From NCBI GenBank assembly GCA_028282585.1, contig JANQHR010000046.1:57021-121020 (forward strand): a stretch of 64,000 nt of DNA. The letters are read 5' to 3'. Origin of the DNA: Bacteroidales bacterium (GTDB taxonomy: Bacteria; Bacteroidota; Bacteroidia; Bacteroidales; UBA12077). Under the pieces are notes generated by a model. It was not told the origin of the DNA and ran no database searches. It worked only from the letters and a program-made list of their open reading frames with translations. Positions 38,296 through 59,234 of the stretch are shown here, one piece after another (position 1 is the first letter of the stretch; every line of letters starts with the position of its first letter). A program made the position numbers and the translations under genes.

Positions 38296-39579
38296 TTAAA
38301 AATTAAATGAAGAATCATTTATATCGGAAATATTTGTAATTACCTCTTTTTTAGTATTATTCTTGATAACCTCCATACCATCTTTATCAAAAGTATTGAC
38401 ACAAAAAGAAAAATCTTTAAATCTGGTAATCCTGAATGTATTATCATCATGCCTTTCTTCCTCTACTTCATCAGAATAACTTCTTGCTCCAAGAACCTCA
38501 TTTAGTACATTCCATCTACGCGCAATTTCTCCATCCTCCACTTTATTACTGAATCCTGTTGAAGTAGCACCATTTACATCGCTGTACCCAAAGTGTTTAA
38601 CTTTATTAAAACACTTATCTTTTTTAAAAAATTCGGTTAACTCATTAAAAATTTCAATAGTTTCTCCTGGGAAGCCTACCATAATATCTGCAACCATATG
38701 CATTTTAGGATTATCAAATTTTATTTCCTGAATTGTATCGTATAACTTGGTTAAGTTAATAGGTCTTCCCATGCGGTCCAGGATGTGCTCATTAACGTGT
38801 TGCAGCCCTATATGCAATTCATTTATCCATCCTTTTTTACATAAATCCTTTATTTCAGTTGAGTACTTCTCTAACCATCTAATATGTAAATAACTAAAAT
38901 AAAGATTTGCCAATGGAACAGCATTTTTTATTTCATGAACTAGTTCTATTATTGTTTTGTTGCTATCGATTCCATAGGCAAAAGCATCTTCTCCCATTAA
39001 ATATATTTTATCGTAACCTTTTTCAACTCCGGTTTTTACTTCTTTAATTATATCTTCAACAGGTCTACTGTTTATATATCCTTTTGCTTTATTTATAATG
39101 CAGAATGTACACTCTCTTAGACATCCTTCAGAGATTTTTATATAATATACAGGAATTTTTTCTGGAGGTGTTAGGTTATACTTGTTAAAAACATTGACAT
39201 ATTTAACATCCTTAAATTCTACTTTCGCTCCAATTATCCTGTCAAGAATTTCCTCTTCATGTATGCCAATAATTTCTCCCCCAAATTGTTCTTTTAGTTT
39301 TTCTGACTGTGTCTTTGGCAAACATGCCATAACAATTATATTCTTTTCAGGAAAATTAACTTCTCTTGCAGCTTCTAGTATTTTAATAAACTTCTCATAC
39401 ATCAAATCATGGAATCCACAACCGCAAATAATAATTTTATCTACATTTAAATCATCACATACCTTCCACCCGTTAGTTCTAAAATATTTTTCAACCGTAG
39501 CATAATAAGAAGTGTGTCTTTCGCAATGGACATTATTAGTAACTATAGCTACTCTTTTATCTAATAATAAATTATTCAT
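38296..39579 (-). CDS. MiaB/RimO-family radical SAM methylthiotransferase-like protein without a TRAM domain
   Basis: UPF0004-type Cys residues (VHCERH, ICGCGF, MACLP), ISEGCLRECTFC, SRPVEDI, LMGEDAFAYG, LHIGLQH and IMVGFPGET. Ends soon after the radical SAM core. ATG 39579 preferred to GTG 39624. Confidence 0.8.
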   Translation of the reverse strand: MNNLLLDKRVAIVTNNVHCERHTSYYATVEKYFRTNGWKVCDDLNVDKIIICGCGFHDLMYEKFIKILEAAREVNFPEKNIIVMACLPKTQSEKLKEQFGGEIIGIHEEEILDRIIGAKVEFKDVKYVNVFNKYNLTPPEKIPVYYIKISEGCLRECTFCIINKAKGYINSRPVEDIIKEVKTGVEKGYDKIYLMGEDAFAYGIDSNKTIIELVHEIKNAVPLANLYFSYLHIRWLEKYSTEIKDLCKKGWINELHIGLQHVNEHILDRMGRPINLTKLYDTIQEIKFDNPKMHMVADIMVGFPGETIEIFNELTEFFKKDKCFNKVKHFGYSDVNGATSTGFSNKVEDGEIARRWNVLNEVLGARSYSDEVEEERHDDNTFRITRFKDFSFCVNTFDKDGMEVIKNNTKKEVITNISDINDSSFNF

Positions 39580-39623
39580 AATAAGAGTTATTAAATTATT
39601 TAAGGGATTACTGTAAATGTTCA

Positions 39624-42600
39624 CTAGAAGTTAAATTCTTCTTCGTGGTTTTCAATTAATTCGCTATTTGCCAAAATGTAGTTATTTGTTAAGTTGATTT
39701 GGCTCAATATAATTGAATTATTGTTAATTACTAATTCTATTATTCTTTGAAAATGGTCGGCCATCTGAGAAATAAAATCTTGATTAAATGAATCTGAGGC
39801 ATACCTAAAAAGCATATTTGTTCTGGATGAACTCCCAAAAGCATCTAATGTTAAAAGGTATTTTAAATTTTTATTATGTAGATTTTTTTCTCTTTGGGCG
39901 TTAATTGTATTATTTATCTGATTTGTCCCCTCATCAATATACTGCATAGTAAAAACAGTATTAATCAAATCAAATTCTGATAATTTACCGGATTTTCTTA
40001 AATGAAAAATTAACTCGTCATATGGTAAGTCTTGATTTTCAAAGTCTACAATAGTTTCATTTTTTATTTTATTAAGATAGGTTTCATATTCAAGATCAGT
40101 ATCTATATAACTTTTTACCGGTAACATATTTATAAAAAAACCTACTATATTATTTAAATTGTTGTCAATTCTACCTGCAACTGGTGTCCCAATAAAAAAG
40201 TTTTCTTGGTTAGTATATTTAAATAATAGAATATTATAGACCGAGAGAAGAAAAGCATATAAGGTTGTATTATTTCCTTTTGTGTATTCTCTAATCTTTT
40301 TATGTAGATTCTTATCAATTGAGAATAGATAATTTTCAGACTCAGGTTCTTCTAACTTTATTCTGTTAACTGGAAGTTTAAGGATTTCAAAAGGATCCTT
40401 AAATTTATTCAACCAATAGTTTAATTGTTTATCCAAATTCAAATTATGCTGTGAATTAGCCCATTCAGCGTAATCTTTATATTGTAATTTTAATGGAAAT
40501 AACTCCTTTTTATTATAAAGTGATAAAAAATCTTCAATTAATATATCATTTGAAATTGCATCGGAAATAATATGATGTAAATCAAATAAAAGATAACTTT
40601 TTGATTCTGTTTGAGCAATACATGCCCTTAACAATGGAGGATCATTTAAGTCAAAAGGTTGTATAAAGTTCTTTATTACCTGATTTAGATTACTCGATTT
40701 TTTAAAGTCTTGATTATTAAGATTTCGCAAGTCAATATATTCAATATCAAAATTAACATCGTCAGTTATTTTTTGAATAAGCTTATCATTATAATAACTA
40801 AAAGAAGTTCGTAAACTCTCATGGCGATTGATTAATTTTAAAAATATATCTTTAATCAAATCCTTATCTAATTCATCTTCAAATGAATAAATTCCAGGCA
40901 AGTTATAACTAGTACTATTTTTATTTAATTGATACAGTAAGAATAATCTTCTCTGTGCAGCAGATAGTTCATAATAATCCTTTTTCTCTGAGGATTTTAT
41001 AGTTTCATATTCTAATTTCTTACTTGAATTTACCACTGCAGATAGTTTACTAATATCTTGATTAATAAACACATCAGACAATGTTAATTTAACATTAAAC
41101 TCTTCAAAAATTCTTGATATTAAAATTGTAGCTTTCAAAGAATGTCCTCCTAAATCAAAAAAGCTATCATTTATACTTATCTCTTTCTCTTCGATCTGTA
41201 ATATCTCTGACCATATTTTTACCAATTGTAACTCTGTTGTACTGCGTGGTGCAACATAGTCCTTACCAGAGCGAATTTCCGGTTTTGGCAATGACTTACG
41301 GTCTATTTTACCATTACTGGTTAATGGTAAACTCGTTAGTTCTTCAAAATAACCTGGAACCATATAGTCCGGTAATATACCTCCTAAGTAATTCCGTAAT
41401 TCTGATTGATCTATTTTTGAACCCGGAACATAATATGCACATAAGTATTTATCACCTTCTTCTTCCCTGCATAATACAACACACTCCGAAATATTTTCAT
41501 GACCCAGAATGACTCGCTCTATTTCTCTCAACTCAATTCTAAAACCTCGAATTTTTACCTGGTAATCGGTTCTACCTAAAAACATCAAATTACCATCTGG
41601 TAACCAGCGTGCTAAATCTCCTGTCTTGTATAGTTTACCTGTTGATTCAAATGGATGTTCAATAAATTTTTCTGAACTTAATGCTTCATCTTGAAAATAG
41701 CCTCGTGCCAAACCATCTCCTCCAATGCATAATTCGCCTATACAACCCTGGGGAACTAATCCATTACTTTCATCTAATACGTATAGCTGTGTATTTACAA
41801 TCGGTTTCCCTATGCTTATTTCTTTTTCTCTTGTTACATTCTTTATGCTTGACCAGATCGTCGTTTCTGTCGGACCATACATATTGAATATCTCTGCATT
41901 GGTTAATTGACGAACATTTTCTAATAGTTGCAAGCTTAACTCTTCGCCACCTAATAATAACGATTTTAGATTACGAAGGGATCGGCCCACTCGATCTGAT
42001 CCCAATAGTAGTTGTAAACGTGAGGGGGTTAATTGTAATATGGTTACTCCAAATTCTTCCAATCTTCTCAATATCAAGTCTCCATCCAACTGTTCTTGCT
42101 CGTTACCTAATACTAATCGTGAACCACGTAGCAAGGGAACAAATAGTTCTAAGCCAAATATGTCGAAGCTTATGGTGGTTAAAGAAAATAAGCAGTCTGT
42201 GGTACTAAATGGAATTTCTTTATTGATTCCATATACAAAATTAACCAAGGATTTATGTTCTATCATTACTCCTTTGGGAGTACCTGTAGAACCTGTGGTA
42301 TAAATAATATAAGCTAAATCTGTTGGGGTTGTGGTATCCGGAAATGATAAAAGTCCTGGATAAGTGTGTATTAATGGATAATTTATGTCTAAAACAGTTA
42401 AGTTATCGGTTAAAACTTTATTCAAACTGTTGTCGCTTAATAAATAGTCTATTCCACTACTTTCAATGATGTTCTTAATTCTTAATTCCGGATAACTGGG
42501 ATCTAACGGTAAATAAGAACATCCGGATTTAAGTATGCCAAATATTCCGATTATTAACTCCAGCGAACGGCCCGATAATAATCCGATGGTTTGACCAGGT

Positions 42601-45600
42601 AAAACTCCCTGGTCACGTAAATAGTTTGCCATCTGATTAGAACGTATTGATAACTCTTTATAAGTTAATAAGCTTTTTCCATATGATATCGCTACATGAT
42701 CTGGTGTATCATCTGACCGATCTTCAAATAGCTCATGTATACTCCTTGTTTGAGGATATTCGTATGTTGTCTCATTAAACCTTTCAATTAATTTACTTTT
42801 CTCATCTGGTAAATTACACTCTATATCATACAATCGTACACTTGAATTATCTATTAAAGTTATCAGTAAATTTCTAAAATGGTTTGTAAACTGATTTATA
42901 AAATCCTTTCTGAAAATATCTGAACAATATTCAACCGAGATTTCAATTGTATCACTTTCATTACAATATATCGTAATATCATTCTTTGCTGCCTCTTTAT
43001 TAAAAATTTTAACTGGTTTAATATCTAGATTATCCGAAAGGTTTTTAAGTTCGCTACTTTCGTCAAAACCCAAATATGAAAATCCAGCTTCAAACACAGG
43101 ATTATGACTTGTGTCTCTTTCAATTTTTAAATCATTAACAAGATCATCAAACTGATAATCCTGGTTTGACATGGCCTCTATGGTTTTATCTTTTATTAAA
43201 TTGAAAAAATCCAATAATGTTTGCTTTATATCTATTTGTATTCTGATAGGAAGTATATTAATAAAAATACCTATTAACTCTTCAAAGTCTTTTGATGATC
43301 TACCGAATATGGTTGATCCAATAATTATATCTTTTTGATTCGTGTATTTATACAAAAGAATGTAATATACTGATAAGAAATATACATAAGAGGTAACACC
43401 TATATTCGTGCAAAATTCTTTAATTTTAGTCGTTAAAACCGAATCAAGCTCAACAACAATCAAATCGCTATTAGTACTCTGCAACACCGGTCTACTAAAA
43501 TCTACAGGTAAATTTAAAATCGGTAAATTTCCATTTAAAAGATTTAACCAATACTTTTTTTGAGATTCAAATTCTTCAAGTTTGTTTCTATTTTCCTGCC
43601 AAATACCGAATTCTTTATATTGAATATTAATTGGCTTAAAACTGGTAGAATTGCTTTGATACGTATCGAATAATTGATTTATAAATAAACGACAAGAATA
43701 AGCATCAGCAATAATATGATGAATATCGATAAAAAGTAAATGATCATCATCACTTATTTTAAATACTTTAATTCTAAACAAAGGTGCTTTACTTAAATCA
43801 AATGGTAAAATTGAATTTTCAAAAATATCCTCCAATTCATTATTATCAATTTTAGTAACATTTAATTTATCGAATAATATTTCTTCTGGATCGTGGACAA
43901 TTTGCACAGCATCTCCTTTAATAATCTTAAATGATGTTCGTAAAGATTCGTACCTTTTTATTAATAACTCAATTGAACATTGTAATCTTTCAGTATAAAA
44001 TTCTCCTTTAATTCTATAGCAGTGAGGTAAATTAAAACTAATAGTACGGTTAGTTAAACTATCTAGTATAAATAGTCTTTTTTGAGCAGAAGAAATAGTA
44101 TAGTATTCTTTCTTTTCCGACGGCAGTATATTAATTGAATTTGTTGAATCTGCAATAGAACTTCTGTTTAAGTAATCTGTAAGCTTTTTTACATTTTTAT
44201 TTTTAAAGAAATCAGCGATTTTAATGTTGAAATTCAATTTTTCTCTAATGCTATTTATGATTAAAATTGCTTTTACAGAATTACCGCCAAGCTCAAAAAA
44301 ATCATCAAATACTCCTATACCTTCAAACGTTAGATGGTCTTCCCAGATTTTTACTAATTGCTCTTCAATATCGTTATTTGGAGCTACATAGTTTGTACTT
44401 AATTCTGGTCTTGTTCGTAAATTAAGATTCTTAACACTGCTAGATGAATTAATTAATTTTGATTCAAGCTCTTTATTGTCATCTATTTTTCTCTGTTCTA
44501 AATCTATTGTTGAAACTATAATTTGGTTGAGATTACATGCTAAGGCCCTACTAAAAATAATTTTACCTTCGCTTGGCTTAATTGCATCCTTTAAATAATA
44601 ATTAACTTTCTCACTTTCTTCTTTTATTATTTTTTCAGGAGATACATAATTAATAAAATCACTACTTGTATAATTAGATAGTTCACCTGAATCTGTCGAT
44701 TTTATTTCTGAATTGCTAATATCAAGCAGGTTATAACCTTCCACCTTAAGTATAGTGCCCGAATCGTCTGATAATACAAAATCATAGTTTATAAAATCCT
44801 CATTCTCACTTTTATTTAAGCGAACTAAACTACAAAAGTTCTTTGTAAGTGGTTTAATAATAGTAATCTTATGATAATAGGCAGGTAAAAAAGCTCCTTT
44901 ACTTAGTATTGGAGATAAAGCTACATCTACTAAACCGGGATGCAAAGAATATTCTTTCAAATCTTCTAATGATTCCTCACCTATAATAATATCAGAAAGG
45001 CCAATATTTTCTCCTACTTTAATTTTCACATTATTATTTCGCCATCTTTTACCAAATCTTAGATATTCGTTTTCATGTAAATTATTTTCAAGTGCTTTAG
45101 TTGGTTTCAATTCCTGATTTTTAAAATAATCTATGTTTTCCTGAATATTTAATTTGGCTTCTAAAATTGAAACCTGACCTTTACAATGTTCTATCCAACT
45201 ATCTTCATCTTCGTAATAGCTAAGAATTTTAAAGTCAAGCAAATCTCCTTTTTGGGTAATAATTGTATGGATTTCTTTATTTTCATCCTTTTCAAACACC
45301 ATAGCTCTTAAAATATGTAAAGCTCTTATCTCTACAGAATCATTTTTGGGATATAAAAATTGTACGGCAGCATATAACATTTGCAGATATCCGGTACCAG
45401 GCATTGTTGCTTTATCTAGTATTCTGTGTTCGTTTACTATCCAATCATTTTCAGAATGTATATAGCTAATCAGTATACTTTCATTTTCATTTGAAATATA
45501 TTTTCTGAAAAGAAAGTGATCAATTTTCCTTTTAATGAAGCTATTTTCATTAAAAGGATTAGAAAGTTGTTTTAATGTTTTTACCGCACCGCCTACCTCT

Positions 45601-48600
45601 TGCCATGCATCCCAATTAATACTTATATACTTTGTATTTTGAGTATTTTTGTAATATGCAAAAGCATCTAAAAAAGCATTTGCTGCAGTATAATCAATTG
45701 TTCCTACATTTGGGTAAATTGCATTTAATGAAGAAAACAGTAAAACAAAATCTAAATCTAATTTAAGTTCTTCAATTATTCTATTTATTACTAAAGTTCC
45801 ATACAGTTTTGTGGTAAAGACTTCTTCAACTTTTTGTGTTGTTTTAAGTTGAATTAATCCTCCTCCGGGTAAGCCAGCACAATGTATTATTCCATCAATT
45901 CTACCAAACTTTTTGATTCCATTTCTCACAATATTATTAACACTATTATAATTAGAAATATCTGAATTACATATTATAGTGTCATGCCCAAAGGACTTTA
46001 TAAATTTCAGCTTGTTAATTTTCTCAACTATTTGATCGGAGTTTGGTTTATTTAACAATTTATCCCATTCACTTTCATCAGGAAACTTTGATCTGCTCAC
46101 TAATATTAAATTCGCACTAACATTTTTTGCCAAATATTCAGCAATTTCTAATCCCAATCCACCTAATGCACCTGTAATTAAGTAAGCACCATTCTTTTTC
46201 AAGTATAACTCTTTATCTTTACCTGTATTAATATTTACGCGTTCATAATTTAAAGCAAAACGATGGTTATTTTGATAACTTATAATACGATCCTTAGTGT
46301 TAATTAAAATCTCATCTAAAATACTATTAATGAGTTGTAACTCTTCTTTTTCTCCTTCAATGTTTTGAGCAATATCAACACTTTTACATCTAAAGTTAGA
46401 TAATTCTAACGGTATTGTTCTAATTGCACCAAGTAATGTTGCCTTTTCCGGATATTGAATCTGGCTACCTGAAATACTTTGCATTTGATCAGTTACAACA
46501 CAGAGCTCAACTTTATTAGTTATCGAGTTATTTGCATAAGCTTTAGCAAGAAATAATAAACTATAAAATCCTAGATTTTGAGATCTTTTAACCTTTTCTA
46601 TTTCTTTTAAATTGTGTTTTTCATTGGATAAGTTCCATAAATGAACAACCATTTCAGGAATAGTATTCTTATTTTTTAGATATTCAATTAATTTATTTAA
46701 ATCCTTTTCGTTTCCAGGTCGAATCTCAGCCTCATTATTTTTGTTTATATTAAACTTATTACCCTCTTTAACAATTATTGTTGACTCATATATCTTATTA
46801 AATCTATCAATAAGTCTTGAGCAAATTTTTTCATTGTTAGCAAATACTAAACAAACCTTATCTGAATTAACTTCTCCACTATCTGTGTAATTAAGAATTG
46901 TGGGTTTCCATATGGGAAAGTATGTCCAGTTATCAATACCAAGTCTTTCTTTAATATTATCGTTCACTTGCACAAGTTCGGATATATCTCTCTTTTGTAA
47001 TATATTTTCCGCAAGAGATTCATTTATTTCAAACTTCTTTTTTGAAAATGAATATCCAGGTAATGAAATTCTTCTTCTTTCTTCACCGTGATAATACTTT
47101 TGCCAATTAATCTTTATCCCATTTAACCATAGGTATCCAATACGCGAAACGAGATAAAATACATCGGAATATTCTTGATTTTCCAGTCTAATAGTATTGA
47201 ATATTTTCTTATTTGGCACATTCTTAATAAATTGGTAGGTAATAGTACTTAATGAATTTCCTGGTCCGATTTCACAAAAAACAGGATCCTCTAATTTAGA
47301 CAACTCTTCTAATCCCTTACTAAACTGAACAGTTTTTCTTAACTGCATTACCCAATAATCAACCGAACCGGCATCCTCTATAGTAATCCATTCGCCAGTT
47401 ACATTTGATATATAAGGTATTTGGGGTGTACTTAGAACTTTAGTTTGTAGCTTTTGTTTATATTCGTTCATTATCATTTCCATATCACGAGAATGACCTG
47501 CTACATTTATCTTAAGTCTTTGACAAATTATTCGATTTTCTTTAAGTAATTTTTCAACAAAAGAAATACTATCCACCGAACCTGAAATAATACAAGATTC
47601 TCCATGATCAGCCGCTAAAGAAATCTGATCATTTAAATATTCTGAAAGCTTTGAACTTTCTAAAGGAATATTTAACATAACACCTTCAGGAAGTTTAGTC
47701 ATTAGGTAACCTCTATAGCTTACTAAATCAAGTGCATCTTCCAGGGTTAAAACACCAGATAAACAGGCAGCTGTGTACTCACCAATACTATGGCCAATCA
47801 GAGCAGAAGGTTTTATATCCCAATCCATTAATAACTTTGCTAACGAATATTCAATTACAAAAGTAATAACCGGTGAAACATCAATATTATCAATAACAGT
47901 TTCATTCAAAAATTCTTCTGTTGATGGATAAATAATTTCTTTATAATTATAATCAGAAATGGTACTTAGTATCTTGAAACAGTTATCCATTACATTTCTA
48001 AATTCAGGTTCTGTTTTATAAAGCCCCAGCCCCATATTAATATATTGAGAACCCTGGCCTGAAAACATAAAGACAATAGGAGAATTACTGTTTTGACATA
48101 TTTTCTTTATAAATCCCTTTTCCTCTACTTTATTTAATTTGCCCAATGCATCGTCAATATCAGAACAAATAAGGTATGCTCTATGATCAAATTCTTTTCT
48201 TCCAACACTTAAAGTATATGAAATATCTGATAAATTAATGTCACAATTATTTTGTAGAAATTCCGTTAATTTTTTGATATTTTCTTTTAAAGATTCTTCG
48301 TTATTAGCCGAAACCAGTAATAACTTATACTCCTTTTCTTGTTTGCTATATTTTAATTCAGGCGCTTCCTCTATAATTACATGGGCGTTTGTACCTCCTA
48401 TTCCAAATGAGCTAACTCCTGCGCGTAAAGGATATTCATTATTAGTCCATTCCTTCAAATTTCGATTTATATAAAATGGAGAATCCTCTATACCTAAACT
48501 GGGATTAGGTTCTTCGAAGTTTATACTTGGCGGTATCATTCTATGTTTTAACGAAAGAATTCCTTTAATAAAACTTCCTACTCCCGATGCGGTGCCCATA

Positions 48601-49670
48601 TGGCCTACATTTGCTTTTAGCGACCCTATTCCGCAAAAGGACTTCTTTGAGCTATTAAACGCTTTTTTTAAAGCTTCAATCTCAACGGGATCTCCCAACT
48701 TAGTTCCTGTTCCATGAGCTTCAATATATCCAACACTTTCAGAAGGAACTTCTGCCATCTTTAATGCAGCTTCAATTACAGATTTCTGCCCCTTAACACT
48801 TGGAGCTGTATATCCAACCTTTTGATTTCCATCATTATTAACCGAGGAACCTTTAATAATAGCATAGATATTATCACGATCTTTTATTGCATGATTTAAT
48901 TTCTTTAATACAACCAAACCTACACCCTCGCCTACTGCAATACCACTTGCATTTTTATCAAAAGCTCTACAATGTCCATCCTTAGATAACACCATTCCCT
49001 CTTTATAGACATAGCCCTTTGATTCTAAAATATTTAAATTAACACCACCAGCAACAGCCATATCACATTCTCCGGTCAACAAAGCCCTGCATGCCAAATG
49101 TATTGCTACAAGTGAAGTAGAACATGTTGACTGTACTAAAACACTTGGTCCTTTTAAGTTTAAATTATATGAAACTCTTGTTGTTAAATAGTCCCTCTCG
49201 TTAAATAAAGAAGCAAAAAATGTATCTAAACCCAGTTCTCTTTCATTTAACATGGATATTACTTTCCATTCAAAGTCTGAGGAAGATCCGGCATATAATC
49301 CAATAGAACCTTTATAATCCTCCGGATTATATCCTGCATCCTCTAATGCATGCCATGTAGATTCATGTAAAATCCTAGATTGAGGATTTAATGCTTGTGC
49401 CTCGTTTGGGGCGTATCCGAAAAAATCAGGATCAAAAAGATCCTTACCATCCATTATTCCTCCCTTACAATTTACATATTGACTGTCGTTTTTTACTTTT
49501 GGATCAATATCTAGATTTTCAACCTCTCCTTTGGTTAAAAAAGTTATTGATTCAACTCCATTCTTTAAATTTTCCCAGAATTCAATCGTATTAACAGCTC
49601 CTGGAAATCTTGCTGAAATTCCGATAACAGCTATTTCAAGACCATTATATTTAGAGTTTTGTTTAGTCAT
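39624..49670 (-). CDS. Hybrid PKS-NRPS: KS-AT-KR-DH-ACP-C-A(Gly)-T-C
   Basis: KS STCSTS, HGTGT, NVGH; AT GQGSQ, GHSIG, VAGHS; KR GALGGLG, YTAAN; DH EHRILDKATMPG and HPGLVD; ACP GGNSV; C HHIIADA; A code DILQLGMIWK (Gly); T GGHSL; terminal C HHIISDA. Confidence 0.93.
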   Translation of the reverse strand: MTKQNSKYNGLEIAVIGISARFPGAVNTIEFWENLKNGVESITFLTKGEVENLDIDPKVKNDSQYVNCKGGIMDGKDLFDPDFFGYAPNEAQALNPQSRILHESTWHALEDAGYNPEDYKGSIGLYAGSSSDFEWKVISMLNERELGLDTFFASLFNERDYLTTRVSYNLNLKGPSVLVQSTCSTSLVAIHLACRALLTGECDMAVAGGVNLNILESKGYVYKEGMVLSKDGHCRAFDKNASGIAVGEGVGLVVLKKLNHAIKDRDNIYAIIKGSSVNNDGNQKVGYTAPSVKGQKSVIEAALKMAEVPSESVGYIEAHGTGTKLGDPVEIEALKKAFNSSKKSFCGIGSLKANVGHMGTASGVGSFIKGILSLKHRMIPPSINFEEPNPSLGIEDSPFYINRNLKEWTNNEYPLRAGVSSFGIGGTNAHVIIEEAPELKYSKQEKEYKLLLVSANNEESLKENIKKLTEFLQNNCDINLSDISYTLSVGRKEFDHRAYLICSDIDDALGKLNKVEEKGFIKKICQNSNSPIVFMFSGQGSQYINMGLGLYKTEPEFRNVMDNCFKILSTISDYNYKEIIYPSTEEFLNETVIDNIDVSPVITFVIEYSLAKLLMDWDIKPSALIGHSIGEYTAACLSGVLTLEDALDLVSYRGYLMTKLPEGVMLNIPLESSKLSEYLNDQISLAADHGESCIISGSVDSISFVEKLLKENRIICQRLKINVAGHSRDMEMIMNEYKQKLQTKVLSTPQIPYISNVTGEWITIEDAGSVDYWVMQLRKTVQFSKGLEELSKLEDPVFCEIGPGNSLSTITYQFIKNVPNKKIFNTIRLENQEYSDVFYLVSRIGYLWLNGIKINWQKYYHGEERRRISLPGYSFSKKKFEINESLAENILQKRDISELVQVNDNIKERLGIDNWTYFPIWKPTILNYTDSGEVNSDKVCLVFANNEKICSRLIDRFNKIYESTIIVKEGNKFNINKNNEAEIRPGNEKDLNKLIEYLKNKNTIPEMVVHLWNLSNEKHNLKEIEKVKRSQNLGFYSLLFLAKAYANNSITNKVELCVVTDQMQSISGSQIQYPEKATLLGAIRTIPLELSNFRCKSVDIAQNIEGEKEELQLINSILDEILINTKDRIISYQNNHRFALNYERVNINTGKDKELYLKKNGAYLITGALGGLGLEIAEYLAKNVSANLILVSRSKFPDESEWDKLLNKPNSDQIVEKINKLKFIKSFGHDTIICNSDISNYNSVNNIVRNGIKKFGRIDGIIHCAGLPGGGLIQLKTTQKVEEVFTTKLYGTLVINRIIEELKLDLDFVLLFSSLNAIYPNVGTIDYTAANAFLDAFAYYKNTQNTKYISINWDAWQEVGGAVKTLKQLSNPFNENSFIKRKIDHFLFRKYISNENESILISYIHSENDWIVNEHRILDKATMPGTGYLQMLYAAVQFLYPKNDSVEIRALHILRAMVFEKDENKEIHTIITQKGDLLDFKILSYYEDEDSWIEHCKGQVSILEAKLNIQENIDYFKNQELKPTKALENNLHENEYLRFGKRWRNNNVKIKVGENIGLSDIIIGEESLEDLKEYSLHPGLVDVALSPILSKGAFLPAYYHKITIIKPLTKNFCSLVRLNKSENEDFINYDFVLSDDSGTILKVEGYNLLDISNSEIKSTDSGELSNYTSSDFINYVSPEKIIKEESEKVNYYLKDAIKPSEGKIIFSRALACNLNQIIVSTIDLEQRKIDDNKELESKLINSSSSVKNLNLRTRPELSTNYVAPNNDIEEQLVKIWEDHLTFEGIGVFDDFFELGGNSVKAILIINSIREKLNFNIKIADFFKNKNVKKLTDYLNRSSIADSTNSINILPSEKKEYYTISSAQKRLFILDSLTNRTISFNLPHCYRIKGEFYTERLQCSIELLIKRYESLRTSFKIIKGDAVQIVHDPEEILFDKLNVTKIDNNELEDIFENSILPFDLSKAPLFRIKVFKISDDDHLLFIDIHHIIADAYSCRLFINQLFDTYQSNSTSFKPINIQYKEFGIWQENRNKLEEFESQKKYWLNLLNGNLPILNLPVDFSRPVLQSTNSDLIVVELDSVLTTKIKEFCTNIGVTSYVYFLSVYYILLYKYTNQKDIIIGSTIFGRSSKDFEELIGIFINILPIRIQIDIKQTLLDFFNLIKDKTIEAMSNQDYQFDDLVNDLKIERDTSHNPVFEAGFSYLGFDESSELKNLSDNLDIKPVKIFNKEAAKNDITIYCNESDTIEISVEYCSDIFRKDFINQFTNHFRNLLITLIDNSSVRLYDIECNLPDEKSKLIERFNETTYEYPQTRSIHELFEDRSDDTPDHVAISYGKSLLTYKELSIRSNQMANYLRDQGVLPGQTIGLLSGRSLELIIGIFGILKSGCSYLPLDPSYPELRIKNIIESSGIDYLLSDNSLNKVLTDNLTVLDINYPLIHTYPGLLSFPDTTTPTDLAYIIYTTGSTGTPKGVMIEHKSLVNFVYGINKEIPFSTTDCLFSLTTISFDIFGLELFVPLLRGSRLVLGNEQEQLDGDLILRRLEEFGVTILQLTPSRLQLLLGSDRVGRSLRNLKSLLLGGEELSLQLLENVRQLTNAEIFNMYGPTETTIWSSIKNVTREKEISIGKPIVNTQLYVLDESNGLVPQGCIGELCIGGDGLARGYFQDEALSSEKFIEHPFESTGKLYKTGDLARWLPDGNLMFLGRTDYQVKIRGFRIELREIERVILGHENISECVVLCREEEGDKYLCAYYVPGSKIDQSELRNYLGGILPDYMVPGYFEELTSLPLTSNGKIDRKSLPKPEIRSGKDYVAPRSTTELQLVKIWSEILQIEEKEISINDSFFDLGGHSLKATILISRIFEEFNVKLTLSDVFINQDISKLSAVVNSSKKLEYETIKSSEKKDYYELSAAQRRLFLLYQLNKNSTSYNLPGIYSFEDELDKDLIKDIFLKLINRHESLRTSFSYYNDKLIQKITDDVNFDIEYIDLRNLNNQDFKKSSNLNQVIKNFIQPFDLNDPPLLRACIAQTESKSYLLFDLHHIISDAISNDILIEDFLSLYNKKELFPLKLQYKDYAEWANSQHNLNLDKQLNYWLNKFKDPFEILKLPVNRIKLEEPESENYLFSIDKNLHKKIREYTKGNNTTLYAFLLSVYNILLFKYTNQENFFIGTPVAGRIDNNLNNIVGFFINMLPVKSYIDTDLEYETYLNKIKNETIVDFENQDLPYDELIFHLRKSGKLSEFDLINTVFTMQYIDEGTNQINNTINAQREKNLHNKNLKYLLTLDAFGSSSRTNMLFRYASDSFNQDFISQMADHFQRIIELVINNNSIILSQINLTNNYILANSELIENHEEEFNF

Positions 49671-49791: not shown

Positions 49792-50937
49792 TTATTTAGT
49801 ATTGTAATAATACTTTCTGAGTGCGTAACTGGATATTATGTTTTTTTGTATTTGTGATGTTCCTTCAATTATCTCCAATACCTTAGCTTCTCTAAATAAC
49901 CTTTCAACAGGGTATTCTGAATAACATCCATTTCCTCCATGAACTTGTACAGCATCAATAGCAACATTCATTGCAATTTTTGAGGAAAAATATTTTGCAA
50001 TTGTAGTTTTTATTACAGCTTCATGACCTTTATTCATTCTATTATTTGCAGCTTCAATACATAAGGCTCTTGCTGCATGGATATTTGTAGTAGCATCAGC
50101 AATCATTCCCTGAATATGTTGAAAGGTATGTATACCTTTCCCAAATTGATTTCTATTTCTTGAATATTTCACCATTGCATCTAACGCTTCCTGTGCAATA
50201 GCAACACCCGCCCAAGCAATACTATATCTTCCATTATCAAGCGCAGTATTAACAACAAATGAAAAGCCGCATCCTTCTTTGCTTAACAAATTCTCACGAG
50301 GTATTTCTACATTTTTAAATTCAATTTCTGATATATGTGAAGCTTTATTAGCTAATAAACCTTTTATTGGCTTAACTTCTATCCCCTCATAATTGCGTTC
50401 AACAATAAAAGTAGATATTCCTTTTTCTCCTCTTGCTACAACTATGAAGAAATCAGCAATTTCAGCAAAACTTATCCATTTTTTCTTTCCATTTAGAATA
50501 TATCCGGAATTAGAATCTGAATATGAACACTGAATATTTTTTGCATCCGTACCTACATTTGGTTCAGTTAAAGCAAAAGCCCCAATCTTCTCTCCTGTTG
50601 ACATCATTGGTAACCATCTCATCTTTTGTTCAATACTCCCCCATTTTAGCAAAGTTTCAGCAACTAAAGAGGTATTAACAGTTATTAATCCACGCGTATT
50701 ACAACATGCTTTACCAATTTCTTCCGTAAACAATCCATAATGAAGTGAATCTAGCTCAAGGCCACCAAAATCTCTTGGTATACTTGCAGTTAAGTATCCA
50801 TTTTTAGCTAAATTAGTAATTAAATCATTTGGCAGTTTTTCCTCGTTTTCAAAAATAGTAGCAAAAGGCCTTATCTTTTTTTGAGCAAATTCTTTTACTT
50901 CTTCAATAACAGTATTTTGATCTATCAAATTATTCAT
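49792..50937 (-). CDS. Acyl-CoA/acyl-ACP dehydrogenase (FkbI/ZmaE-like)
   Basis: GAFALTEPNVGTD, LNGKKKWIS, RNQFGK, AVQVHGGNG and EIIEGTSQIQ. Located in the FkbH cassette. Start may be 50937 or 50961. Confidence 0.9.
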   Translation of the reverse strand: MNNLIDQNTVIEEVKEFAQKKIRPFATIFENEEKLPNDLITNLAKNGYLTASIPRDFGGLELDSLHYGLFTEEIGKACCNTRGLITVNTSLVAETLLKWGSIEQKMRWLPMMSTGEKIGAFALTEPNVGTDAKNIQCSYSDSNSGYILNGKKKWISFAEIADFFIVVARGEKGISTFIVERNYEGIEVKPIKGLLANKASHISEIEFKNVEIPRENLLSKEGCGFSFVVNTALDNGRYSIAWAGVAIAQEALDAMVKYSRNRNQFGKGIHTFQHIQGMIADATTNIHAARALCIEAANNRMNKGHEAVIKTTIAKYFSSKIAMNVAIDAVQVHGGNGCYSEYPVERLFREAKVLEIIEGTSQIQKNIISSYALRKYYYNTK

Positions 50938-50948
50938 TGCCTCTTTAG

Positions 50949-51650
50949 TTATAAACTGCAAATGGCAACGGTAAAATCGTAGACATACCCATTACTACTC
51001 AAGCTCTGCCTCACTTTTAAACCTCCATTCTCCAGTATATTAATCAGTTCCGACTCTTTCAATAGTTCTCTGTATCCTAAATTGAGTTCTGGATGCATTT
51101 CCATAAAAACTCGTGTTAGAACAGTATCTGTAGGTACTGAGATAATTATAACACCATCTTCGGCTACATATTTTTTATGTTGCTCAATGATTGATGTTTT
51201 ATCCATAAAGTGTTCAATAAGCCCAAAACTCCCTACAATATCATACTTTTGATCCAGTGATAAGTCAAAAATATCTTCACGTAAGTAAGATATATTTTTA
51301 ACAACAGTATCCTTTATCAGTGAAAAAGAATTAAACGCTTCTTCTGATTTGTCAACAAGCGTGGCCCTTCCTCCATACTGATTTAAAAGCCATCGGCTTA
51401 AAAATCCAGTTGCGGCTCCTAACTCAAGTATTTTAGGATTTGATTTTATTTTTTCTGTTGATAAAAGTTCAAGCATTAGTCTAGTAAAAGAAAACGATAA
51501 TCTGAATTTGTCTTCTTTTAATAATTCTCGTATTTGAAAAAATAGCTTTTCTTTATCACAACTATTGATTAGTTCCTTATTTCTATCCTTTGAAAAAAAC
51601 ATGTCCCATTCGAAACCTTCTTTTGATAAATAATCTGTTGTTATATACAT
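50949..51650 (-). CDS. Class I SAM-dependent methyltransferase
   Basis: Motif I ILELGAATG, LVDKS and YDIVGSFGLIEH. Confidence 0.85.
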   Translation of the reverse strand: MYITTDYLSKEGFEWDMFFSKDRNKELINSCDKEKLFFQIRELLKEDKFRLSFSFTRLMLELLSTEKIKSNPKILELGAATGFLSRWLLNQYGGRATLVDKSEEAFNSFSLIKDTVVKNISYLREDIFDLSLDQKYDIVGSFGLIEHFMDKTSIIEQHKKYVAEDGVIIISVPTDTVLTRVFMEMHPELNLGYRELLKESELINILENGGLKVRQSLSSNGYVYDFTVAICSL

Positions 51651-51691
51651 TTTAAAAACGATATTATTTAATCCGATAAAAGCAATTATGT

Positions 51692-51937
51692 TCAGTTCCT
51701 ATTTTTATTGATAAGATTAATGATATTATCAATAGAACTAAAATTTGAGATATCAATATCTTCATTATTTACAGAAATACTAAACTCACTCTCCACATAA
51801 CTAAGCAGTTTCATTGCAAAAAGAGAATTAACAAATCCTTTTTCAAAAATGTTATCACTATCAGAAAAAATGACTTCATCATTAAAAACTATTAAATTGC
51901 TTTCGATGAATTTTCTAATCTTATCTTTAGTTTCCAT
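51692..51937 (-). CDS. Stand-alone acyl carrier protein (FkbJ/ZmaD-like)
   Basis: 81 aa with IFEKGFVNSLFAMKL (phosphopantetheine Ser) and NFSSIDNI; adjacent to FkbH. Confidence 0.88.
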   Translation of the reverse strand: METKDKIRKFIESNLIVFNDEVIFSDSDNIFEKGFVNSLFAMKLLSYVESEFSISVNNEDIDISNFSSIDNIINLINKNRN

Positions 51938-51949
51938 AATTTTAAAAAT

Positions 51950-52984
51950 TTAGTTTATTGATAATTTAATATATGGTGGAAATTCTTGAATTTTTTCAAG
52001 AGTATTTTCGAATTTTATGTAGCCGTTATCTAAAACTAATACTTCCTTAAAATTGGAAAATTTATATGTTACGTACATCATTTTATTACGATCCGTCTTG
52101 ATAAAATCTGCAGTTACCTTTTTATTTTCTGTTTTTGCTTGTTTCATAATATAAGAAAGTAGTACTGATCCTACACCACGTGATATAACTCGACAAGACA
52201 TTAATAATAGTTTTACTTCCCATGTAATTTCGGTAATATGTATTAAACCCAAACCTATTTTTCCATATGATCCATACTTGTCTTTTAATTCACAAACCAA
52301 TAATTTATGATTAGGAGATGATCTAAAATAGTTAAGTTCCTTATAACTATATGTTTTCCCTGTTGCATTTAATTGATTAGTACGCACAGTCAACTCCTCG
52401 GCTCGTTGAAGATCTTCTTCAGCTGCTTCTGAAATAATAAATTCCATATTTAATGAGGCTAAAAACTCATCTTTGGGTCCTTCATACTCTTCTTCAAGTC
52501 TTGTTCTTTTAATATTCTCAAGATACATTAATCTTCTTCGTTGAGAATCTTTTGTTATAAATTTCGGATTAAATCGTGATCTAGATAATAATTCTTTATA
52601 ATCTACTGAATCAATACATTCAACTTGAGGACACTGGGATTTAACCTCCTCTCTTTCATATGGTTGATCATCAATAAAAACAATTGTATCAATTCCAATA
52701 TTTAAATCTTTTTGTATTTGAGCGACCGATGCTGACTTAGCATTCCAATTAATTTGAGGATATAAAAAATAATGATCTATGCTGAATTCTTTCAATTTTC
52801 TCATAGCATCATCATAGTTATTCTTACTTGATATTGAGTTTAAAATCCCTCTAGAATCTAATGTATTTAATATATCCTCTATACCGGTTTTTAATTTTAT
52901 GGTTTTAGACTCAGTTAAAACATTATCCCAAATTGTGTTATCTAAATCCCAAATAACACATTTAACCTCTTTCTTATATTCCAC
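51950..52984 (-). CDS. fkbH: FkbH-like glyceryl-ACP synthase (HAD-IIIC)
   Basis: KCVIWDLDNTIW, SISSKN, FIDDQPYER, RTNQLN and LLMSCRV; GTG start. Confidence 0.92.
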   Translation of the reverse strand: MEYKKEVKCVIWDLDNTIWDNVLTESKTIKLKTGIEDILNTLDSRGILNSISSKNNYDDAMRKLKEFSIDHYFLYPQINWNAKSASVAQIQKDLNIGIDTIVFIDDQPYEREEVKSQCPQVECIDSVDYKELLSRSRFNPKFITKDSQRRRLMYLENIKRTRLEEEYEGPKDEFLASLNMEFIISEAAEEDLQRAEELTVRTNQLNATGKTYSYKELNYFRSSPNHKLLVCELKDKYGSYGKIGLGLIHITEITWEVKLLLMSCRVISRGVGSVLLSYIMKQAKTENKKVTADFIKTDRNKMMYVTYKFSNFKEVLVLDNGYIKFENTLEKIQEFPPYIKLSIN

Positions 52985-53002
52985 CTTATTAATAGATAAA
53001 CA

Positions 53003-53857
53003 TTAGTATTTATAAAATCCTTTGCCCGTTTTTTTACCATAATCTCCAGCATGTACCATTTTTTTCAACAAAGGACAACATCTAAATTTAGGATCCTGAT
53101 ATTCCTCATAAAGAACATCTAACGAATTAACAACCGTATCTAAACCTATTAAGTCAGCTGTTTCTAACGGGCCCATTTTATGGCCATAACCACGCTTAAA
53201 TATTTCATCAATTTTATCAGGGCTAGCAACTTGGTCTTGAACCAAAAATGCAGCTTCATTCATAAATAAATGTGACAGTCGATTTGCAACAAAACCTGGA
53301 AAGTCTTCTACAACTATTGCCTTTTTATTTAATAGTTTAAGTATTTTCTCTGCTTTATCAATTGTGTCTTTACTAGTATGATATCCTTTAACAACTTCCA
53401 CTATATTTTTAAGTGGAACGGGATTCATAAAATGTAATCCAATCACGTTTTCGGATTTTTCAAATTCGCCTGCAATTTTAGTTATTGAAATACAACTAGT
53501 ATTTACAGCAAAAATTTCCCATTCAATTTTTTCGTTTTTTAACTCTGTGTATAAACTCTTTTTAGTATTCCAATTTTCGGTTATATTTTCAACAATAATA
53601 TCAAGTTCTTTAAAATCCTCCCATTCTTTTGTAAAAGTAATCTTAGCCAAAACGTGCTCTGTACTTACATGAGCAAATTCCTGTTTTATCATTTTCACTA
53701 ACCTTAATTCACTACCTAGCTTTTGTTTGGCATTAAGTAGTGCATTTTCTGAAATATCCTTCAATATTACATTACAATTGTTCAGTGCAAAATCAAGAGC
53801 AACGCCTACTCCCATAACCCCTGCTCCGATTACACCAACACTTATTTCTTTATTCAT
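53003..53857 (-). CDS. 3-hydroxyacyl-CoA/ACP dehydrogenase (FkbK/ZmaG-like)
   Basis: GVIGAGVMG, NTSCISI, GLHFMNP, PGFVANR and MGPLETADLIGLD. ATG 53857 preferred. Confidence 0.9.
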   Translation of the reverse strand: MNKEISVGVIGAGVMGVGVALDFALNNCNVILKDISENALLNAKQKLGSELRLVKMIKQEFAHVSTEHVLAKITFTKEWEDFKELDIIVENITENWNTKKSLYTELKNEKIEWEIFAVNTSCISITKIAGEFEKSENVIGLHFMNPVPLKNIVEVVKGYHTSKDTIDKAEKILKLLNKKAIVVEDFPGFVANRLSHLFMNEAAFLVQDQVASPDKIDEIFKRGYGHKMGPLETADLIGLDTVVNSLDVLYEEYQDPKFRCCPLLKKMVHAGDYGKKTGKGFYKY

Positions 53858-53933
53858 TTTTCTATTTTTAATAAACAATCTATATATGTTAGAATGGATG
53901 TATCCAGTATGTTGCAACTATAGTTGACTGAAT

Positions 53934-56900
53934 TTAATTATTCAAAAAGCTATTTTTCATAAAATCTTTTCCTTCTTCTAAAGTTTCGAAATTATTCACA
54001 GTAGTATTTTCTTCACTCTGTTCAGATTCCAAATGATCTGTTAATCCTTTTATAGTGGTATACGTAAATAAGGTTGTAATAGGAATTTCTTTGTCGAGTA
54101 ACTCGTTTAGTTTAGTATTCACTAAAATTAAACTTAAAGAGCTTCCTCCGAGATCAAAGAAATTATCATTTACACCTATTCTATTTAGTTTTAAAACTTC
54201 TTTCCAAATTGCTTCAACCGACTTCTCCATTTTGCTTTCAGGTGCAACATATGTTGTCCCTGTCATGGCCCTATCTTTTTGCGGTGCAGGAAGTGATTTA
54301 AAGTCAATTTTACCACTAATTGTCAACGGAATAGAAGGAATCTCTGTGAAATATGAAGGTACCATATATTCAGGTAATGATTCTAATAGAAATTCTCTTA
54401 AGGTATTTGAATTAACATTTTCTGAAAAACCATTCACCGGAATGAAATAAGCTGCAATATATTTCTCATCATCTCTAATATTTACTTTTTCGCTCACCCC
54501 CAGCCTTCTTAAAAAGTTACCATATGCCTTTTCGGAGACCTTACAATTTAAATCTTCTTCAACGTTCTCAAGGGATAAGTGATCTAGTCTTTTTTCCCAA
54601 CTTGTTGCTGAACCATAATAATGAAATCCATGATCTTTCATAAAACCATAATCTCCAATTTCTTTTATAGCACAGTTTGTTGAATAAACTGCAAAGTCTT
54701 TTTTCTTTTTCCAGTATGAGTCTTGTTTATTTAAATAGGTTATTAAATCCTCATTTTTAATATCACAAAACCTATAAAAATCCAGAAACCTCACTTTATC
54801 ATGTATTCTACCGTCCGTTACTACATCTATATCAACTAAGTCAAATATTTTACTATCAATCTTTGGAGTATTCTTTTGCATATTTAATATTTCCTTTTCA
54901 ATTAACTGATTATCCATATTTTCAGATTTCATGAAAATATTAAGTTTGTTTTCAATTATTTGACCCCTTGAAAGTGTAGCTCCAATAACAACTTTAATAT
55001 CGTGTTTGTAAGCATACTCAGCAGCAAGCGAACTTGATACATGAAAACATCCCCTACATACAGTCGAAAAGGATTTCATACTTTCTTTAAGTATAATATC
55101 AGATATATCGTGCTTTAAAATGATATTTTCAACACCCAACGATGATGTTACATATTTTATATTCTTAATATCTGATTTAGAAAAGTAACCATTGTCATAT
55201 GTTAAAGTTAATACCTTCAAACCCATTTTAACCAGTTGATATAAAGCATAACCTGCTCCCCGTCCTCCTGCATAAAGTAAAATACAATCATATTTACTTT
55301 CTTTATCTTTATTTTGCTCTTTTACAAAAGTTTGAAGATCATCTAAAGATTTAAAATATTCATTAATGACTTTACTATTTTTTTCCAAGGAATTACACTG
55401 GTTACAGATATTACTGTCATCTATCTTAATCTCTGGATAAGTAGAATTAATTCCGCATTTTTTACAATATTTTAATTCCGGTTTATCATCCTTTGGCGAC
55501 CTAACCATTAAAACACAGTCCTTAATATTCTGATGTTTTTGTAAAGCATTCTTTATTTCTCCAAGTTCAATTCTATATCCTCTAACCTTAACCTGTTCGT
55601 CTTTTCTTCCTTTAATTTCAATATTCCCATCTATTAACCTTCTACCAATATCTCCGGTTTTATAAAGTTTCCCTTCTCCAAATGGATTATCAATAAATAC
55701 TTCATTTGTTTTTTTCCAATTATTAATATATCCTCTTGCAATACTATCTCCTGCTATACAAATCTCACCATAATAACCAAGTGGTTTTTGTTGTAAATCG
55801 TCCGAAAGAATATATACTTGATTATTTGCAACATTATTGCCAATAGGAATTATTTCTCGAGTATCATCTTTCTTTAAAGGATAAAATGTATTATTAATAG
55901 TACCTTCTGTTGGACCATAAGTATTAACAACCCTACCTTCCAAATAATTATGGAAATTTCTAACAACATTGGCAGCAACAGGTTCAGCTCCTATAAACAG
56001 GAGTGGTATTTTAATTTTAATATCATTTTCATAGGAATCTAAAATATGGGTAATAGCAGTAAACATAGATGCTGTGCAGTACATCTTTGTAATTTCAGTA
56101 GCTTTTGACAGAAGTTTTATTAAATGGTTAGCATCTTTACTTATTATGTCATTAATGACTTTTACTTTAGCACCTTTGTACAATGGCCAAAATACTTCGA
56201 AAACTGACGGATCGAATGTAAGATTTGTACGTTGTGCCATTACATCAGTTTCTAACATCCCAAATTCCTTATCCATCCAGAATACACAATTATTTACTTG
56301 TTTGTGTTCCACCATTACACCTTTTGGCACTCCTGTTGATCCTGATGTGTACATAACAAAAGCCAAATCACTACCATTGGTGGGTATATCCAAATTCGAA
56401 GATGGTTTATCTTTTAATTGATCAACCATTTGATCAATAATTATAATATTCCTGGTATCCAGCACATTTTTTTGTAATATTTTTTTATATACAATTCCAT
56501 TTATAGACTCTAGTTGCCTAGTATCAGGAATATTAAAGTCATTCTTAAAAAATTCCTTAAGTAATTCTTCAAAAGTATATTCTCCTTCACCAAGTACAGC
56601 TAAATCAACATTTTCATCTTTTAGAATAGTATCGTAATCACTTGATGCATACGGCCCACCTACAATTAATGGAACCTTTATTCCCCAATTTCTAATAATA
56701 GAAACTGTTTGGTGAAAAAAGTCTCTGTAAAAAGTCAAAGTTCTTATTCCAATTAGATCTGGATTAAACTCTTTTACCAAGGTTTGCAACTCCTGGTAAT
56801 TATCAAAATCAACACCTGCCTTATATATAAGCCCATCGATCTTATCCTTGAATTTCTTTTTAAGATATGTCAATAAGTATACTAAACCAATAGGTTGTTC

Positions 56901-59234: not shown

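Follow-up and report, generated by a model that had tools for sequence, protein, structure and literature searches.

A conserved nonribosomal peptide synthetase adenylation domain interrupted twice, by a cobalamin-type radical SAM unit and by a PP-loop-fold domain with a degenerate ATP loop

A minus-strand open reading frame (ORF) at 53934-59234 of the window, the 64,000 nucleotides analysed here from a Bacteroidales bacterium (assembly GCA_028282585.1, contig JANQHR010000046.1, positions 57,021 to 121,020 of the forward strand), encodes a single nonribosomal peptide synthetase (NRPS) protein of 1766 residues. Its ORF and Pfam matches give the order half-condensation lobe, adenylation (A) domain and thiolation (T) domain, with the A domain interrupted twice, by a radical S-adenosylmethionine (SAM)/B12 unit between motifs A2 and A3 (insert 1) and by a domain of predicted PP-loop fold between motifs A8 and A9 (insert 2). 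The twice-interrupted A domain is real, and neither chance nor an assembly artefact, because both inserts were found in 116 of the 119 sequences compared. Taken as a whole, the protein is best explained as a working NRPS elongation module of a conserved and undescribed twice-interrupted A-domain type, a reading that we hold at slightly better than even odds (about 0.55).

All ten core motifs of the A domain were located, although the AMP-binding match of Pfam is split into two stretches. The N-terminal piece of the domain (58050-58454, minus strand, as are all parts of this gene) carries motifs A1 (residue 299) and A2 (344-354). The middle piece (55485-56459) carries A3 (964), A4 (1007), A5 (1104), A6 (1156), A7 (1191) and A8 (1209), together with nine of the ten specificity residues (DPFYFGTIN), and the C-terminal piece (54255-54449) carries A9 (1620) and A10 (1640), the latter bearing the lysine of the code. 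Insert 1 occupies residues 396-925 (56460-58049) and insert 2 residues 1251-1595 (54450-55484). The spacing between A2 and A3 is 620 residues, compared with 77-82 in two uninterrupted A domains of the window, which leaves an insert of about 540 residues, and that between A8 and A9 is 411 residues, compared with 67-71 in other A domains of the window, which leaves about 341. A preliminary description of this DNA, made by a model from the letters and an ORF list, had placed two unrelated inserts at A2-A3 and A8-A9 and held them to be longer together than their host; motif spacing and the Pfam and NCBIfam matches agree with both claims, the inserts summing to about 880 residues and the remaining A domain to about 470-510. 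With every core motif kept and foreign Pfam or NCBIfam domains lying in the two gaps, the domain is an interrupted A domain by definition, and its intact motifs are those of a domain predicted to adenylate, where the preliminary description had allowed that it might prove inactive. The A domain is flanked by an N-terminal half-condensation lobe (residues 1-260, 58455-59234), which lacks HHxxxDG and matches positions 188-451 only of the Condensation profile, the match at residues 18-255 being to the C-terminal half of that profile, and by a T (carrier) domain (53937-54254) with a PP-binding match at residues 1673-1735 and the motif GGSS at 1696.

A HMMER scan with insert 2 returned 2268 representative proteins at E<=1e-3, of which 477 also passed E<=1e-30. 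With few exceptions, the best 150 of the 2268 were large NRPS proteins, and short matches (394-734 residues) were counted as fragments. A tree of 152 rows (FastTree, midpoint root) split the family into two clades along a branch with support 100. A word-indexed search gave 118 clusters for proteins of 971-3091 residues, one of which, P0119, falls in the sister clade; the window clade as counted here is therefore the remaining 117 clusters and the window protein (n=118), or n=119 when P0119 is included. The three sequences of the 119 in which both inserts were not found are P0119 itself and two fragments that start after the insert 1 site. Named sources within the family include Ruminiclostridium cellulolyticum, Acetivibrio cellulolyticus, Clostridium botulinum, Pseudobacteroides cellulosolvens and Halothermothrix, and the metagenome-assembled genomes (MAGs) among them are labelled Halanaerobiales, Bacillota, Aminicenantes, Acidobacteria, Deltaproteobacteria and Omnitrophota. 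The genome of the window holds a single copy of the twice-interrupted unit, and one further locus (L001) is near-identical to the window. The sister clade, sampled as proteins P0148-P0274 among the HMMER matches listed, is less than 40% identical to insert 2 of the window, and is very large, a search with P0119 returning 2033 clusters at E<=1e-20.

Insert 1 is identified by its motifs and profile matches as a cobalamin-type radical SAM unit with its halves in reversed order. A Radical_SAM match at residues 443-607 (57414-57908; PF04055, 67.5 bits) is followed by a B12-binding match at residues 779-892 (56559-56900; PF02310, 47.5 bits), both above their cut-offs, and the cluster motif CxxxCxxC is present as CPYKCLYC at residues 449-456 (57867-57890). 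This is not the canonical order, in which the B12-binding domain lies N-terminal to the radical SAM domain. In NCBIfam, the first part of insert 1 matches the C-terminal radical SAM halves of class B profiles (PhpK, MJ_1487, BzaD, BchE and others), while the start of the KedN5 profile (positions 31-154) aligns only with residues 398-524 within the insert, so that the two halves are permuted. A precedent for a radical SAM domain that precedes the cobalamin domain is given by Mmp10, according to the accessible text of a survey of these enzymes (PMC8950095). The same text describes the class B radical SAM methylases CysS, ThnK and TokK as acting on pantetheine-bearing substrates (PMC8950095). Insert 1 resembles these methylases in its CxxxCxxC motif and B12-binding domain, but differs in sitting in cis within an A domain, in its permuted order and in scoring below all curated NCBIfam cut-offs. 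The window holds three radical SAM/B12-interrupted A domains in all, and CxxxCxxC is present in the other two as well. Insert 1 is about 51% identical to those two copies but 57-72% to the counterparts from other organisms, and thus belongs to a distinct orthologous subtype. Across 10 sequences its columns are on average 78% identical.

Insert 2 is, by its profile matches and its predicted structure, a domain of PP-loop (adenine nucleotide alpha-hydrolase, AANH) fold and of N-acetyl sugar amidotransferase (NASAT)/AMDH type. The preliminary description had seen an unrelated, Cys-rich domain of about 335 residues; its size (about 341 residues) and its cysteines stand, whereas the label does not, the domain being recognisable by profile and fold. 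In NCBIfam, TIGR03573 (WbuX, N-acetyl sugar amidotransferase) matched residues 15-323 of the 360 searched with an E-value of 9e-28 and 97.7 bits, below the curated cut-off of 203.2, and LpNASAT (PDB 8wex) was the only significant solved relative by sequence. Structure prediction, proposed in the preliminary description as a check on whether the insert has an enzyme fold, gave one: the AlphaFold2 model, built from a 26-row alignment, has a predicted local distance difference test score (pLDDT) of 89 and a predicted template-modelling score (pTM) of 0.88, and its top Foldseek match was again 8wex, with an E-value of 2e-10 and template-modelling (TM) scores of 0.59/0.54. The next matches were NcsA, YcfA, TtuA, LarE, asparagine synthetase, NAD synthetase and QueC, all PP-loop ATP pyrophosphatases, with TtuA, NcsA and LarE at TM scores of 0.28-0.38. 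A language-model atlas likewise places insert 2 in the PP-loop superfamily. When the window's genome was searched with the TtcA/TtuA-type profile PF01171, one match was returned, in a frame of 442 residues.

Three sets of residues characterize insert 2. A tetracysteine, CKKC...NICNQC (C1257, C1260, C1277 and C1280; 55395-55466), fits the zinc motif of NASAT, given as CXXCXn[GN]XCXXC in the accessible text of its description (PMC10607449). The loop AGGRGA at residues 1322-1327 (55254-55271), aligned to SGGKDS of 8wex and relatives, is a degenerate PP-loop. An invariant CRGC (C1393 and C1396; 55047-55058) forms, together with C1521 (54672-54674) and C1317, a candidate second metal or iron-sulfur (Fe-S) site. 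NASATs of the WbuX/WbpG kind are thus the best match to insert 2 by both profile and fold and have the zinc motif in common with it, but they are free-standing, sugar-modifying proteins with SGGXDS, unlike insert 2, which is embedded in an A domain, has a degenerate loop and scores well short of the TIGR03573 cut-off.

The degenerate loop is a property of the whole window clade. SGGXDS is present in NASAT and other PP-loop enzymes, and SGGKDS was found in 126 of the 127 sister-clade members, yet the Asp of the loop is kept in 0 of the 118 members of the window clade, in which the six loop residues take 28 forms (for example AGGRGA, SGGRGS, ACERVA and SGSLGS). Since the PP-loop has been lost across the clade, the known AMDH chemistry should not be assumed for insert 2. 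Around the loop the domain is strongly conserved: C1257, C1260, C1277, C1280, C1393 and C1396 are present in 118/118 members, C1521 in 117/117 and C1317 in 115/118, and all eight cysteines are kept in the sister clade too. The motifs TVCxGCF, TLSRGQIIENKL, YSTNC and HYYG.AT.WE.R are conserved across phyla. Median identity to the window protein (P0001) is 66% for insert 1, 53% for insert 2 and 53% for the middle piece of the A domain, compared with 44-45% for the ends of the A domain, 45% for the T domain and 31% for the half-condensation lobe. Neither passenger is thus less constrained than its host, and the ATP loop alone has been released.

The specificity code was read from the aligned A3-A8 cores of the eleven A domains of the window, with its positions set by GrsA numbering, for which FDxS, GGE and NxYGPTE served as anchors, rather than by alignment to 1AMU. 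On this basis the nine code residues of the module are DPFYFGTIN, the tenth being the lysine of A10, and GAE stands where GGE is expected (LLFIGAE at 1078). This is the unusual code, about DPFYFGTINK with GAE for GGE, of the preliminary description, which was thus re-read identically and proved to be conserved: DP[WF]Y[ILVF]GTIN is fitted by 113 of the 118 clade members, the others being three near variants and two incomplete sequences. The remaining codes of the window look ordinary, and the oddity of this one therefore does not stem from the method. They comprise DVQFIAHVV of the upstream module and DILQLGMIW of the polyketide synthase (PKS)-NRPS protein, which we take to be Pro-like and Gly-like respectively, as well as DLTK[IV]GEVG, DVWHFSLVD and DFWSIGMVH, presumably Asn-like, Ser-like and Thr-like; the assignment of DLTK.GEVG to Asn is that of the Stachelhaus table. 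The code of the window-clade hosts is neither Asn-like nor Gln-like, and the module would load an alpha-amino acid other than Asn or Gln. Two sources of a closer assignment were tried and set aside. The codes for Thr, Leu and dihydroxyphenylglycine each match about 5 of 10 positions and none decides the substrate, and the nearest solved A domain, LgrA (330 bits), reaches its score through two A domains taken together (143 + 185 bits) and offers no clue to specificity.

Host codes in the sister clade are Asn-like in 85, Gln-like in 23 and of other kinds in 8 of the 116 read among the matches listed. The Gln-like codes of these 23 include DAQDIGIVD, and a DPRH/DARH group makes up 7 of the 116.

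Comparison across the family shows that the code and the subtypes of insert 1 and insert 2 are inherited together, in anaerobic bacteria of several phyla. In the sister clade, P0193 and P0206 each have a radical SAM/B12 insert as well as a domain that keeps SGGKDS, and their codes are Gln-like; the two kinds of insert have thus met more than once.

Among the closest systems described is the aminomutase/amide dehydratase (AMDH) domain of CysH (cystobactamid) and AlbIV (albicidin). In the accessible text of its study, AMDH lies within an Asn-specific A domain, has a conserved SGGKD motif, and dehydrates carrier-bound Asn to cyanoalanine or isomerises Asn; the purified CysH protein is dark brown, and the hosts named in that text are Asn-specific only (PMC7966384). 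AMDH and insert 2 are both about 340 residues long and both inside an NRPS A domain, insert 2 at A8-A9, and a coloured, metal-containing AMDH agrees with the invariant cysteines of the insert 2 family. It is the sister clade, with SGGKD and Asn-specific hosts, that matches this description, and it is set alongside CysH and AlbIV by description only (PMC7966384): Cystobacter and Xanthomonas names were absent among the best 120 of the 2033 matches to P0119, and a cluster look-up of ten A-AMDH-T-sized proteins contained no CysH/AlbIV-like name. The clade of insert 2 differs from AMDH in lacking the Asp of the loop, in a host code that is not Asn, and in that its complete members always have a radical SAM/B12 insert.

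Besides class I methyltransferases, a few reductases or oxidases are known as passengers of A domains. Di-interrupted A domains with two methyltransferases form families 5 and 7 of the catalogue of Lundy et al. 2020, and family 7 resembles the window module in that its two passengers lie apart, A2-A3 being one of the sites (PMC8341866). According to the accessible part of that catalogue, A8-A9 is the commonest site of single inserts, and all of its passengers are class I SAM methyltransferases, in contrast to the cobalamin radical SAM unit and PP-loop-fold domain found here; B12 and amidotransferase are not mentioned there (PMC8341866). In a literature search, outside which subscription journals and supplements fell, no paper was found to describe an A domain holding a radical SAM/B12 unit, or an AMDH-like domain whose ATP motif is missing. 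A further search by title and abstract found nothing on the R. cellulolyticum gene, its locus-tag prefixes giving a proteome paper only. Interrupted and di-interrupted A domains and the SGGKD-bearing AMDH are thus already known, while the arrangement is undescribed in the literature found; what is added here is the second insert with its relationship to AMDH and NASAT, the absence of the ATP loop throughout its clade, and a code that is fixed.

As a working elongation module, the protein would receive its growing chain from the terminal condensation (C) domain of the upstream protein, which would condense it onto the module's residue in trans. The radical SAM/B12 unit would act in cis on the residue bound to the carrier, with C-methylation of an unactivated carbon as the likeliest change. 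Insert 2 would work without ATP and would no longer adenylate; it may either clamp the pantetheine-bound substrate or provide the radical step with a metal or Fe-S site, or it may be an ATP-independent isomerase, a remnant of the aminomutase activity of AMDH. An Fe-S site is suggested by the four cysteines that lie outside the zinc motif, by the brown CysH protein and by the [4Fe-4S] fold neighbours NcsA, TtuA and LarE. The product would then often be handed to a ketosynthase (KS) domain. The three-part unit probably makes an unusual building block; the heavily modified monomer of the preliminary description stays a prediction. A more specific version of this scheme is put forward as tentative, and we think it more likely wrong than right: the cobalamin radical SAM enzyme and the former PP-loop domain, turned from amide dehydratase into an Fe-S or clamp partner, may together tailor a residue in cis by radical chemistry, yielding a conserved non-proteinogenic residue that anaerobes of several phyla would incorporate into peptides and often ketide-extend to a gamma-amino acid pharmacophore.

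Several points weigh against the working-module reading and its proposed chemistry. The roles assigned to the family members are predicted throughout, and the direction of chain transfer follows from gene order only. The scores of insert 1 lie far below every curated NCBIfam cut-off, its best profile matches include the non-methylases BchE, BzaD and AprD4, and methylation is the commonest function of class B radical SAM enzymes, not their sole one. For insert 2, the sole residue-level hint of an Fe-S cluster, a hidden Markov model alignment to the [4Fe-4S] enzyme LarE, ends one CxxC register away. In most members the loop is still rich in Gly and basic ([SAN]GG[RK]G[SA]), and some binding of nucleotide or phosphate may persist. 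Finally, the loop is taken to have been lost in the window clade, rather than gained in the sister clade, from the presence of SGGXDS in the outgroup, the tree being midpoint-rooted only.

That Gly-rich loop also bears on the idea that insert 2 has remained an ATP-dependent amide dehydratase/aminomutase of the kind seen in CysH and AlbIV, with a variant loop and a substrate bearing an amide side chain. Insert 2 is homologous to the SGGKDS-bearing NRPS clade (29-38% identity, E-values of 1e-53 to 1e-67), the A8-A9 site is common to both clades, and the motifs C.GCF, LSRGQ and S.NC are shared. An enzyme of this kind is, however, hard to reconcile with a loop that has none of its Asp residues left in 118 sequences and that extends to forms such as ACERVA and SGSLGS among the 28, or with hosts whose code is never Asn-like or Gln-like in the window clade, as compared with 108 of the 116 sister-clade hosts among the matches listed, and continued ATP dependence is considered highly improbable. 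If the loss of the signature catalytic loop is instead taken at face value, insert 2 could be a dead relic, retained since its removal would upset the folding of the small A subdomain, and interrupted A domains do tolerate large A8-A9 passengers, as the accessible part of the catalogue of interrupted domains indicates (PMC8341866). A relic would not be expected to equal the A core in conservation (median 53%) and to surpass both the A ends and the T domain (44-45%), nor to keep seven invariant cysteines and the polar positions of TLSRGQIIENKL, YSTNC and HYYG..T.WE.R across phyla while only the loop varies, and we regard this explanation as unlikely.

The fold neighbours that follow NASAT are [4Fe-4S] sulfur transferases, and with the CxxC and the distant Cys invariant, insert 2 might be an Fe-S, sulfur-handling domain of the TtuA/NcsA/LarE/CtaC kind, which together with the radical SAM/B12 unit would install sulfur, for example as a thio or methylthio group. 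A MiaB-like gene in the window cluster, and another directly after the module in a second locus (L011), would fit such chemistry. TtuA, NcsA and LarE pair a PP-loop with three Cys ligands of a [4Fe-4S] cluster. The known enzymes of this kind adenylate their substrate via the PP-loop and need it for this step, whereas the PP-loop is lost here. The B12 domain favours methyl transfer over sulfur insertion, and a sulfur-carrier or cysteine desulfurase gene was not seen in the window. CtaC is described as an Fe-S-containing enzyme of the AANH superfamily in the accessible text of a study on the thioamidation of closthioamide (PMC6772006). Sulfur installation by insert 2 is judged improbable on balance, and a working module in which insert 2 assists the radical unit without ATP is preferred.

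Interrupted A domains are a main route to modified residues in nonribosomal peptides. If the working-module reading is true, cobalamin radical SAM chemistry would take place within an A domain, allowing unactivated carbons to be changed on a carrier-bound residue. The family is also a natural experiment on the poorly understood AMDH, one clade having dropped the use of ATP and kept every cysteine. The contrast separates ATP-dependent from ATP-independent function and points to a metal site that the original study could not assign. The presence of the unit in cultured, genetically tractable cellulolytic clostridia, as R. cellulolyticum WP_015924493 and the P. cellulosolvens gene of locus L013, opens the chemistry to direct testing, and the fixed code would be a new entry for specificity predictors.

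Upstream of the module, a complete C domain (59361-60647, minus strand), with HHIISDG and the other C motifs, forms the C-terminus of the preceding protein and probably serves the module in trans. The same pairing of a full C domain with a following half-C lobe recurs in three other loci (L003-L005), and longer members of the family (about 2100-2250 residues) carry a full C domain of their own. A second NRPS protein of the window, at 2-2182, likewise starts with the C-terminal half of a condensation domain that lacks HHxxxDG.

Downstream, the module is separated from the PKS by five genes (49792-53917, minus strand), encoding a 3-hydroxyacyl-CoA dehydrogenase, an FkbH-like HAD protein, a candidate acyl carrier protein (ACP) of 81 residues, a methyltransferase and an acyl-CoA dehydrogenase. 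The 81-residue ORF is ACP-like in appearance, and we take the five to be a set of methoxymalonyl-ACP type. The next assembly-line protein (39624-49670) has the order KS, acyltransferase (AT), ketoreductase (KR), dehydratase, ACP, C, A, T and C, with its KS domain at 48513-49637 on the minus strand. The preliminary description had named a PKS as the next assembly-line gene, and this KS-AT-KR PKS-NRPS protein, lying after the genes of presumed methoxymalonyl-ACP type, bears it out. Twelve loci extend past the T domain, and in 6 of the 12 (L001, L002, L004, L005, L012 and L013) the assembly line goes on with a KS, a trans-AT gene lying between module and KS in L013; in the other 6, NRPS domains or nothing recognisable came next.

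In L011, which derives from a Bacillota MAG, the MiaB/RimO-like radical SAM gene directly after the module (11512-12690) is 51% identical to the one at 38296-39624 of the window. A radical SAM protein of 322 residues is encoded at 3351-4319 of the window (minus strand) and matches RaSEA (TIGR01210; E-value 6.7e-68, 229 bits compared with a cut-off of 212). RaSEA is the radical SAM protein of archaeosine biosynthesis and is unexpected inside an NRPS cluster, where it adjoins an aminotransferase gene (2233-3354). A third kind of insert, of about 250 residues, was found in the first A domain of the protein at 13973-22792, where A8 and A9 are 322 residues apart compared with 67-71 (19118-20035, minus strand; code DAEDIGLIT), its one Pfam match being non-significant (acetyltransferase_15, E-value 0.024). 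The NRPS protein at 31007-38203 (minus strand) carries a GT4-type glycosyltransferase domain at residues about 887-1198, embedded after a carrier domain and ahead of the condensation domain that follows.

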